From the NCBI GenBank assembly GCA_023247895.1, contig JAHFFP010000004.1:1-35421 (forward strand): a DNA stretch of 35,421 nucleotides, read 5' to 3'. The stretch comes from Candidatus Omnitrophota bacterium. Its GTDB lineage: Bacteria > Omnitrophota > Gorgyraeia > Gygaellales > UBA12090. The notes beneath the pieces are model-generated. The model was not told where the DNA came from, searched no databases, and was given only the letters and a program-made list of their open reading frames with translations. Within the stretch, counting starts at the first letter, position 1, and each line of letters starts with the position of its first letter. Positions 24,058-25,254 of the stretch are shown here, in pieces. The translations under genes were made by a program, and so were the position numbers.

Positions 24058-24102
24058 TGATATAGGAGATACAAATTCCATAAGGTTTTGGTGAGGGGCG
24101 TG

Positions 24103-24141
24103 CCCCGTACAAAACCCTCTGGAATTCCAAATAGTTTTGTA

Positions 24142-24146
<5 letters not shown>
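24103..24146. mobile_element. 44-bp MITE-like element with 13-bp IRs and 4-bp target duplication CGTG, overlapping the tRNA-Pro 5' end
   Basis: CGTG|CCCCGTACAAAAC...GTTTTGTACGGGG|CGTG. Confidence 0.65.
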
Positions 24147-24218
<72 letters not shown>

Positions 24219-24364
24219 AATCTAATAATACTCTTATAAAAATTGAGCAGGGAATTGCAAGGGAGCCCACTACTGCCACGGTCACAAAAATAGCTTCCGC
24301 CTTGGAGGTTTCTATTGATGAATTGGTAAAAGGAAGTAAGAATAATGAAAAGAGGAAATTATGA
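24219..24364 (+). pseudogene. 5'-truncated XRE-family HTH remnant abutting the tRNA 3' end
   Basis: NTLIKIEQGIAREPTTATVTKIASALEVSIDELV corresponds to XRE helices 3-5; no start codon or N-terminal helices. Confidence 0.7.
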
Positions 24365-24651
24365 GAGCTATTAATAATAAAGAGAAGTTACTCCAAACAT
24401 GCAGAAATAATGACATTGTATTCTTGGCGATATTCGGCTCTTTTGTAACAGGTGATTTTACGAAGAAAAGCGATATCGATCTTTTAGCTCGTTTTTCTAA
24501 GCCTAAGAGTTTGCTTGATCTTGTAAGGATTGAAAGAATGTTTTCAGATGTTTTGGGCAGAAAGACAGATTTATTAACCGAAGCCTCTATCAGCCCCTAT
24601 TTAAGAGACCGGATTAAAAATGAGATGGAGGTAGTTTATGAATCCCGTTAG
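24361..24651 (+). CDS. Minimal nucleotidyltransferase (MntA-type antitoxin)
   Basis: FGSFVTGDFTKKSDIDL (GSx10DxD), LGRKTDL. Confidence 0.88.
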   Translation: MRAINNKEKLLQTCRNNDIVFLAIFGSFVTGDFTKKSDIDLLARFSKPKSLLDLVRIERMFSDVLGRKTDLLTEASISPYLRDRIKNEMEVVYESR

Positions 24652-24913
24652 ACCTGGGTATTTTTATACATACGTTCTTACATCTGATAAAACAGGAACA
24701 TTTTATACCGGTGCTACAAATAATTTAGAGAGGAGATTAGAGCGACATAACAGTGGTAATGTATATTATACTAAAAATAAGCTTCCCGTGAGGCTGGTTT
24801 ATTTTGAAGCCTGTTTAAATAAAGACGATGCTTATCGTAGGGAAAGATATTTAAAGACTGGCATGGGTAAAAGATATCTTAAGAATCGGTTAAAAGGAGG
24901 TCTAACGGGATGA
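24638..24913 (+). CDS. Small GIY-YIG nuclease (UPF0213/SLX1-like)
   Basis: [40 protein letters not shown]. Confidence 0.88.
24643..24910. mobile_element. 268-bp GIY-YIG-encoding element with 13-bp terminal IRs and 4-bp target duplication TGAA
   Basis: TGAA|TCCCGTTAGACCT...AGGTCTAACGGGA|TGAA; removal restores an overlapping MNT-HEPN operon. Confidence 0.75.
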
Positions 24914-25254
24914 AAGAGCGGGATGATACAGTATACCTAAAGCATATTTTAGATGCGATTGCCAGAATTGAAGGATATCTTTCCGGGGTTAATCAGGAGA
25001 CTTTTACTAAGACCCCGCTTCTTCAAGATGGGGTCATTCGGCAGGTTGAAATCATTGGAGAAGCAGCTAAAAGGATTTCCTCTTGCCTGCGAAACAAATA
25101 CCCCAATATCCCATGGAAAGACATAGCAGGGATGCGAGACAAGCTTATTCATGATTACTTTGGAGTAGATATCAACGCAGTCTGGTCTACGACAAAAAAA
25201 GATATTCCAACGCTAAAAGCAGAGGTGCAACAAATTTTAAAGGACATTACATAG
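24910..25254 (+). CDS. HEPN (DUF86/HepT-type) RNase toxin
   Basis: [33 protein letters not shown] (Rx4HxY). Confidence 0.9.

Follow-up and report, generated by a model that had tools for sequence, protein, structure and literature searches.

The closest described counterpart of the element reported here is the Ssn system, in which the 94-aa single-domain GIY-YIG protein SsnA of Neisseria meningitidis cuts single-stranded DNA (ssDNA) beside the NTS hairpin. In the Ssn family (cd10448), 71% of the homologues lie close to a hairpin of this kind, and 42% are flanked by one on either side (Chenal et al. 2025, PMC11893778, of which a part was available to us). The layout of the Ssn genes was said there to be identical to that of insertion sequences (IS), and a domesticated element like RAYT/REP was proposed, the IS-like origin being put forward as a hypothesis only. 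The main text of that paper does not contain the terms 'target site', 'duplication' or 'excis'; our literature search gave no description of duplications or mobility for such elements, and only this paper bears on them. Stand-alone prokaryotic GIY-YIG proteins have otherwise been treated as vertically inherited, Slx1-related housekeeping genes (available part of Dunin-Horkawicz et al. 2006, PMC1564403). Here we analyzed a stretch of 35,421 nucleotides from a Candidatus Omnitrophota bacterium (contig JAHFFP010000004.1 of assembly GCA_023247895.1), hereafter the window, in which positions 24643-24910 lie between an mntA-like antitoxin gene and a hepT-like toxin gene. We propose, with a probability of roughly 0.7, that this segment is a copy of a miniature transposable-element family, with an open reading frame (ORF) for a single-domain GIY-YIG protein of about 90 aa between the arms of one terminal inverted repeat. 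A preliminary description, made from the sequence of the window alone, had suggested a possibly undescribed class of element. This was too strong, since the association of small single-domain GIY-YIG genes with flanking hairpin repeats, together with the RAYT/REP analogy, is already in print (available part of PMC11893778). The kind of system is partly known, while the mobility, the footprint and the docking on start codons described below appear to be unpublished.

In the window, three ORFs lie head-to-tail on the plus strand: the 96-aa MNT ORF of an mntA-like nucleotidyltransferase antitoxin gene at 24361-24651 (Pfam NTP_transf_2, E = 1.4e-14; Polbeta, E = 9.8e-15), the 91-aa ORF of the single-domain GIY-YIG nuclease at 24638-24913 (GIY-YIG, E = 1.5e-14) and the 114-aa HEPN ORF of an intact hepT-like RNase toxin gene at 24910-25254 (HepT-like, E = 2.9e-29). 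The 91-aa ORF is bracketed by inverted-repeat arms, ATCCCGTTAGACCT at 24642-24655 and AGGTCTAACGGGAT at 24898-24911, and the core of the left arm is shared with the flanks of homologues. The arms are perfect, as described before, over 14 nt, one base more than the 13 noted. No other perfect repeat of more than 10 nt was present in the 1001 bases scanned, and for any one 14-mer the probability of facing its complement at a fixed position is about 4^-14. The element proper (24643-24910, plus strand, 268 bp, TCCCG...CGGGA), whose ends are set by empty alleles and by contigs that diverge there, stands between two copies of TGAA at 24639-24642 and 24911-24914, and the longer word ATGAA is found at 24638-24642 and again at 24910-24914.

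A24638 and the left TGAA form the ATG of the nuclease ORF, which begins ATG AAT CCC GTT AGA CCT, and the TGA in the right TGAA is its stop codon, so that its start and stop both fall in copies of the duplicated target. Residues 2-6 (NPVRP) are encoded by the left arm and the C-terminus (GLTG) by the right arm. On the host side, the last two codons of mntA and its stop codon TAG (24649-24651) now come from the left arm, and the last base of the element, A24910, forms the ATG of hepT together with the right TGAA. A Shine-Dalgarno-like AAGGAGG (24894-24900, plus strand) inside the element, 9 nt upstream of this rebuilt ATG, is a putative ribosome-binding site for hepT. The coordinates and codon readings of sequence and ORFs in the preliminary description were correct. 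These included the duplication TGAA (ATGAA with one base of the repeat), the ATG supplied to the nuclease by the flank, and the new MNT stop codon, the Shine-Dalgarno sequence and the first base of the hepT ATG supplied by the element.

An uninterrupted mntA-hepT allele, expected from the preliminary description, was found in a genome of the same order (G037, contig C7) and in contigs of sequencing runs X1, X4 and X19. The mntA and hepT genes of G037 are 83% and 85% identical in nucleotides to those of the window, the two BLAST pieces overlap by 5 nt, and ATGAA is present only once. The MNT ORF of G037 overlaps ATGAAAGAG of hepT, as expected for a coupled pair, although it ends EMEVVYERAR* and not with the predicted VVYERAG*. 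The contigs from the three runs join 24637 to 24910 with 5 ambiguous bases at the joint and skip 272 bases, which equal the 268-bp element plus one copy of TGAA. Four public runs were compared with the window, and X1, which may be the source sample, holds 0.93 of its sampled words. X19 is an RNA library, and its joining contig, 2-7% different from the window, may be carried-over DNA. The empty alleles in the runs are thus those of close relatives, not demonstrably those of the same strain. In each run, 3 to 17 contigs match the element and then diverge exactly before 24638 or behind 24914, and the low consensus agreement beyond these positions points to other genomic contexts for the element. 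We are therefore nearly certain that the region is a transposon insertion: this copy entered between the first and the second base of the hepT start codon, duplicating TGAA. Joints from 24655 to 24895 with 16-35 other letters between them were also seen, but their matched sides were only 18-20 nt long, and we regard them as a mere hint of hairpin-only forms.

The window genome (G000; 0.72 Mb in 28 contigs, 66% complete) has one full copy and one distant copy. The distant homologue (G000:C4:28038-28238; L002:1486-1680, minus strand) has 40% identity, aligns from residue 19 of the query only, has a longest ORF from a start codon of 64 aa and no terminal repeat, and adjoins about 700 bases holding only short overlapping ORFs. 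Homologues were found in 48 of 61 related genomes, often several in each; one genome (G027) gave 17 matches, many with stop codons. Among contigs of one genome per species, 566 of 599 candidate stretches were confirmed as homologues, and the best 80 of these 566 were kept. These 80 carry metagenome-assembled genome (MAG) labels of Omnitrophota, Planctomycetota, Patescibacteria, Bacteroidota, Nitrospirota, Desulfobacterota and Elusimicrobiota and of one Woesearchaeota bin, some of which may be wrong. Our script detected a repeat scoring at least 9 at the ORF ends in 97 of 114 copies. For the footprint we used the 85 copies that could be anchored on the core CC[CT][GA]; 29 were dropped, 17 without a repeat and 12 with repeats of another kind or due to chance. 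The family termini read YCCCGTTAGA...TCTAACGGGR, with the outer nine bases constant across the MAG labels and the inner part varying by protein clade. More distant clades (44-53% identity) have CCCCGCCCTTCCT or CCCCGCACCTTCT as arms, giving three repeat types, each with its own GIY-YIG clade.

We also scanned metagenome contigs for the exact arm pair of the window and obtained 47 loci, several of which are the same site in related strains, so that they do not represent 47 independent events. Outside TCCCG/CCCCG...CGGGA/CGGGG, the flanking 4-mers were identical in 36 of these copies (29 TGAA, 5 TGAG, 1 TGCG and 1 TGGA); in 10 they differed, mostly by one base, and one copy was cut by a contig end. 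Identical 4-mers were also found in 35 of the 85 anchored genomic copies (28 TGAA, 3 TTTA, 2 TGAG, 1 TAAA and 1 TTGA). Elements 92-93% identical to each other were found in unrelated flanks. The check proposed in the preliminary description, on homologues, thus turned out positive: the same repeats are found with varying 4-bp duplications at unrelated loci.

The family, taken together with the short forms described below, is marked by 4-bp duplications, by hairpin derivatives that lack an ORF and by its occurrence at many unrelated sites. Terminal inverted repeats, a duplication of fixed length that varies by site, and filled and empty alleles are traits of insertion sequences and of miniature inverted-repeat transposable elements, which also share ORF-less miniatures and nested and tandem copies with this family. 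The difference from classical insertion sequences lies in the content: there is no DDE, HUH, serine or tyrosine enzyme in the element, its only ORF is GIY-YIG, the whole element is 268 bp, and the ORF takes its start and stop codons from the duplicated target. At the right ends of L206 and L012, a second left arm follows directly after the right 4-mer, so that two tandem elements share one 4-mer, which fits insertion into an ATGA-like junction made by an earlier copy. In L040, L047 and L108 the arms stand in the opposite order, the right-type one preceding the ORF and the left-type one following it, which suggests neighbouring or nested copies.

The position of the window copy on a start codon is not peculiar to this locus. 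Seventy-nine copies (47 metagenomic and 32 genomic) have flanks starting with TG on both sides, and the right junction is ATG or GTG in 78 of them. A long host ORF (at least 60 codons, or at least 30 when running off the contig) is found in the frame of the right junction in 74 of the 79; for the two remaining frames the counts were 0 and 2. Most copies have an A or a G immediately in front of the left 4-mer, so that the nuclease ORF uses the original start codon of the host gene as its own; a Shine-Dalgarno-like purine run precedes the left start in 49 of the 79 copies, a count made with a loose pattern and without a control. Because the duplications of the hairpin derivatives are diverse, the restriction of ORF copies to TGNN at start codons looks like the result, at least in part, of survivorship. 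The almost exclusive residence at start codons is probably due to a weak TRAA-like target preference combined with the survival of only those copies that gained an ATG without wrecking the host gene. In such a scheme the element would carry neither a start nor a stop codon, would borrow both from an ATGA-like target and would give the host gene a new start.

The preliminary description had also guessed that palindromes of the type YCCCGT...ACGGGR form a family, and this family exists. Of 201 genomes of the order, 76 contain hairpins of the form CCCGTTAGA-N(4-70)-TCTAACGGG, which are 26-86 nt long. The highest count, in which overlapping and nested matches are included as in all the others, was 68 in the 1.1-Mb genome G027; the reversed pattern, used as a control, was absent from every genome except one. 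We examined the flanks of 41 hairpins, namely those in 20 whole contigs of G027 and the first match from each of 30 other genomes; 19 of them have identical 4-bp flanks, of 11 different sequences, the chance of such identity being 1/256 for each hairpin. The cleanest single insertion event was seen in G027, where a 53-nt ORF-less palindrome with the family termini, bordered at each end by CTTA, splits the GIY-YIG ORF of another element; the uninterrupted state is represented by the window copy and by a copy in G024. Short forms of the second repeat type were found in 21 of the 201 genomes, including all 3 genomes seen with its ORF form. In the window genome itself, a scan for CCCG...CGGG palindromes with a stem of 10 nt, no more than one mismatch and a loop no longer than 320 nt gave 28, while five shuffled sequences gave 1-6. 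Four of the 28 have identical 4-bp flanks: the element itself, C21:13872-14020, C26:11714-11811 and positions 24103-24146 of the window. The flanks of the C21 and C26 palindromes are TTCA and TTTA, respectively, and the arms of the former are of the CCCGCACCTTCT type, which belongs to a distant GIY-YIG clade.

Several points weigh against our interpretation of the segment as a member of a mobile family driven by its own nuclease. The copies found in unrelated flanks were never more than 93% identical, many of the filled loci seem to be orthologous, and movement may be rare. Identical flanks are lacking in 48 of the 85 anchored copies, 13 genomic copies have TTCA...TAAA and 9 have TTTA...TGAA, and none of the 85 has TTCA...TGAA. 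The two combinations represent one asymmetric pair, seen whichever way the ORF is oriented. Inspection by eye of the TTYA...TRAA copies of the anchored set showed no 4-bp duplication one step beyond these flanks, and a search for the empty allele of a Patescibacteria copy with TTCA...TAAA flanks gave only rearranged matches in its relatives. The ORF is broken in 11 of the 47 metagenomic copies. Three genomes have hairpins and no match to the family profile (G037, 14 hairpins; G020, 11; G012, 2), G008 has 20 hairpins and only a broken copy, and the window genome, at 66% completeness, has one full copy and no CCCGTTAGA hairpin. As to the enzyme, GIY-YIG nucleases are hydrolases and are not known to transfer strands or join DNA. 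Six Bacteroidota copies at a single site, considered below, also belong here.

The hairpins in the three genomes without a detectable family member suit a different explanation, namely that the hairpin termini belong to a transposase encoded elsewhere, either DDE or RAYT-like HUH, and that the GIY-YIG ORF is cargo. Y1_Tnp genes, which are common in the order, are present in 4 of the 5 hairpin-rich genomes and in G020, G037, G008 and G003, and at 2 of 16 fetched Y1 loci (L298 and L300) an arm lies within 1.5 kb; a 4-bp duplication is, moreover, typical of several DDE families. However, no arm of either repeat type was found within 1.5 kb of any of the 8 DDE or rve loci or of 14 of the 16 Y1 loci, in a search that covered three transposase families in at most 10 genomes. 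G060 has 19 hairpins and a close GIY-YIG copy with no Y1 match, and HUH Y1 elements are not known to duplicate their target on insertion. In the window genome no Y1_Tnp match was found, and the 11-mer core of the arms occurs only in the two arms of the element. The first and last codons of the nuclease ORF are written in the arms, each of the three repeat types accompanies a GIY-YIG clade of its own, and no other type of ORF was found between such arms in the loci examined. We regard an external transposase as unlikely. RAYT/REP/REPIN and IS200/IS605 resemble the present family in that a small single gene goes together with scattered short palindromes, and in the likely recognition of folded ssDNA. 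Their protein is, however, a HUH tyrosine enzyme, whereas that of the window element is GIY-YIG; the HUH elements are not known to leave a duplication, unlike the present family with its 4-bp duplication; and the Y1 genes in these genomes, as the above count shows, are mostly not flanked by arms.

Hairpins were found in 25 of the 36 genomes whose best profile match was 1e-29 or better, compared with 51 of the 165 others (hand tally, accurate to one or two), and at least 8 hairpins were found in 11 of the 36 and in 9 of the 165. Note that this co-occurrence is only suggestive, as related genomes are not independent.

The protein itself seems to be an intact nuclease. Residues Y12, Y23, G25, R33 and E69, which we take to be the GIY-YIG catalytic positions, are invariant in 61 sequences, and H37 is nearly so. 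The AlphaFold model (pLDDT 85, pTM 0.73) consists of a single GIY-YIG alpha/beta core; Pfam gave only GIY-YIG and a weak T5orf172 match, with no accessory or DNA-binding domain beyond the 90-aa core. NCBIfam has no family at cut-off for the 91-aa protein, and the ESM Atlas returned generic GIY-YIG clusters only. By profile, the nearest solved structures are the UPF0213 proteins 1zg2 (1.3e-13) and 1ywl (1.7e-9), followed by Slx1 (7e-5). By fold, 1zg2 comes first and then Slx1 (TM 0.63-0.65, rmsd about 2-4 A), with I-TevI and UvrC far behind (E 0.3-1). UPF0213 (YhbQ-like) proteins and Slx1, which cuts branched DNA according to the titles of its structure entries, are thus the best matches by sequence and fold, and the window gene differs from them in lying within a bounded, duplicated insertion.

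Another relative is a gene of Azospirillum flanked by four Ssn hairpins with the published motif, to which the window protein shows 38% identity (E = 2e-12; hhalign probability 98%). This Ssn-type GIY-YIG gene (L312:477-989, Azospirillum lipoferum 4B plasmid AZO_p3) lies between sufB and sufC with two hairpins on each side, a further case of insertion within an operon. The published SRM motif matches 4 times around the Azospirillum gene and not once in the 35-kb window or in 148 kb of the hairpin-rich G027. Besides this measurable homology to an SRM-flanked member, the window element and the Ssn system have in common a single-domain GIY-YIG protein (about 94 aa for Ssn, 91 aa here), a gene bracketed by inverted-repeat DNA that is also dispersed as short hairpins, and a stem that starts with YCCCG behind a TCA-like flank. 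They differ in that the window ORF lies inside one split hairpin while Ssn genes lie between complete hairpins, in the absence of the SRM motif from the window and from the 148 kb of G027, in the UPF0213 proteins being the nearest solved relatives of the window protein, and in the duplications, empty alleles, nested insertions and start-codon docking observed for the window family. The window element is accordingly a relative of the Ssn system with a different repeat class and layout.

From this kinship a mechanism can be proposed. The arms of the element pair in both the minimum-energy and the centroid folds of ssDNA, on both strands, and on the bottom strand of the window copy the stem is preceded by TTCA, resembling the GTCA before the Ssn hairpin. 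The nuclease might bind the arm stem together with the 5' flank in ssDNA, as SsnA does, and nick at the base of the stem, that is, at the boundary of the element; ligation or repair by the host would finish the move. Joining by the host is proposed because GIY-YIG enzymes are hydrolases without a known strand-transfer activity. We favor, with some reservation, the view that the encoded nuclease is the mobilising enzyme that makes the breaks. On the wider proposal our opinion is evenly divided: the 90-residue nuclease may be the sole protein of an autonomous transposon family, acting on a single-stranded stem by a chemistry outside the DDE, HUH, serine, tyrosine and Cas1 types, with the duplication put to use as a genetic device.

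The kinship with Ssn could also be read in the other direction: the gene might be a domesticated, Ssn-like host nuclease that acts on hairpins in ssDNA for a purpose of the host, such as limiting incoming DNA, and the insertion an old, immobile relic. Such a role has been shown for SsnA of N. meningitidis and domestication proposed (available part of PMC11893778). Filled loci persist across related strains (L174, L181 and L173 are filled alike, as are L198, L200, L205 and L211), and both the ceiling of 93% identity in unrelated flanks and the single full copy in the window genome would suit a relic. On the other hand, the window genome, as far as its 66% completeness allows, offers no CCCGTTAGA hairpin for such a nuclease to act on; the 11 decaying ORFs among 47 and the stop codons in the G027 copies are the behaviour of selfish copies and unlike that of a single kept host gene; and empty and filled alleles occur together in one sample. 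A domesticated nuclease is, moreover, compatible with a mobile origin. We consider that a purely host-serving gene is improbable, slightly more so than a transposase encoded elsewhere.

Six Bacteroidota copies from different genera (L054, L055, L063, L064, L082 and L106) lie at one site in a Bro-N gene, which is split at one identical codon (between ..ENLRDN and TNLELILNMLAE..), with the element at about 2460-2760 in most of them; the gene is whole in relatives. The intact alleles read GAT AAT ATG ACC AAT, and the filled junctions are not a clean duplication of the empty site. In some copies only, the two Bro-N halves and the nuclease ORF are in one frame with single stop codons between them. 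An intron-like or intein-like reading of these copies was rejected, as the intact codons are not recovered by any excision and a common frame for the three ORFs is limited to some of the copies. Homing-like spread among Bro-N gene copies is possible. Extended to the whole family, this would make the ORF a free-standing homing endonuclease gene, which cuts empty alleles and is copied in by repair, with the repeats being incidental; the identical Bro-N site in different genera without a clean duplication, and the intact alleles in relatives, are what such a gene would leave, and GIY-YIG homing enzymes are well known (available part of PMC1564403). Nevertheless, the nuclease has no DNA-binding domain beyond its 90-aa core, dozens of unrelated host genes are occupied, the matching 4-bp flanks differ between sites, and hairpins without any ORF have spread as well. 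We thus consider homing a very improbable account of the family. The GIY-YIG homing endonucleases I-TevI and Seg and the endonuclease domains of Penelope elements do share a GIY-YIG core on selfish DNA with the window element, but the latter has no DNA-binding module, intron or reverse transcriptase and is found at many unrelated sites, and the fold search ranked I-TevI, like UvrC, far below Slx1 and UPF0213.

If, as we favor, the nuclease drives the movement of the element, a new class of enzyme would be added to transposition, and the element would be the smallest autonomous transposon known to us. One could then test whether the Ssn-hairpin systems represent domesticated mobile elements, the question raised in the Ssn paper, with filled and empty alleles from nature, defined ends and a footprint of 4 bp already available. 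The docking on start codons shows how a parasite can settle inside an operon of a very small genome, and even between toxin and antitoxin genes, with hardly any cost. For genome annotation, many genes recorded as 'GIY-YIG nuclease family protein', together with the altered ends of their neighbours, could be insertions.

As for vectors, 139 pattern matches were obtained in viral contigs, of which none was confirmed as a relative, so that no phage vector was found with that query; among plasmids there were 8 hits, all distant.

Upstream of the element, the window contains the ORF-less palindrome mentioned above, CCCCGTACAAAAC...GTTTTGTACGGGG, of 44 nt (24103-24146), found in the genome-wide scan, with CGTG on either side (24099-24102 and 24147-24150). 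The first five bases of a tRNA-Pro(CGG) gene (24142-24218) are shared with this palindrome, and its terminal CGGGG and the right CGTG make up bases 1-9 of the tRNA. Rfam gave only the tRNA and a sub-threshold microRNA match (mir-1263) in the window, the latter corresponding to this hairpin. Judged from these bases, the palindrome looks like a hairpin element inserted in the tRNA gene that rebuilt the 5' end of the tRNA, in a manner like the docking on start codons; the same logic that serves the ORF copies may allow a hairpin derivative inside a tRNA gene. An empty allele of the tRNA-Pro(CGG) gene was not found. The tRNA-Pro(TGG) gene of G037, which has the same first 15 bases and no hairpin, was rejected as an empty site for being a different isoacceptor.

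Between this tRNA gene and mntA, an ORF at 24137-24364 begins inside the tRNA, and its match to HTH_3 is confined to the C-terminal part (profile positions 22-55 of 55). The segment 24219-24364 resembles a remnant of an XRE-type gene, as might be seen in a tRNA-integrated island. The end of a contig in G005 is 96% identical to 24313-24417 of the window. Elsewhere in the family, about 29 nt upstream of a Parcubacteria copy (L075:1888-1916) recur with 90-100% identity in many related small genomes.

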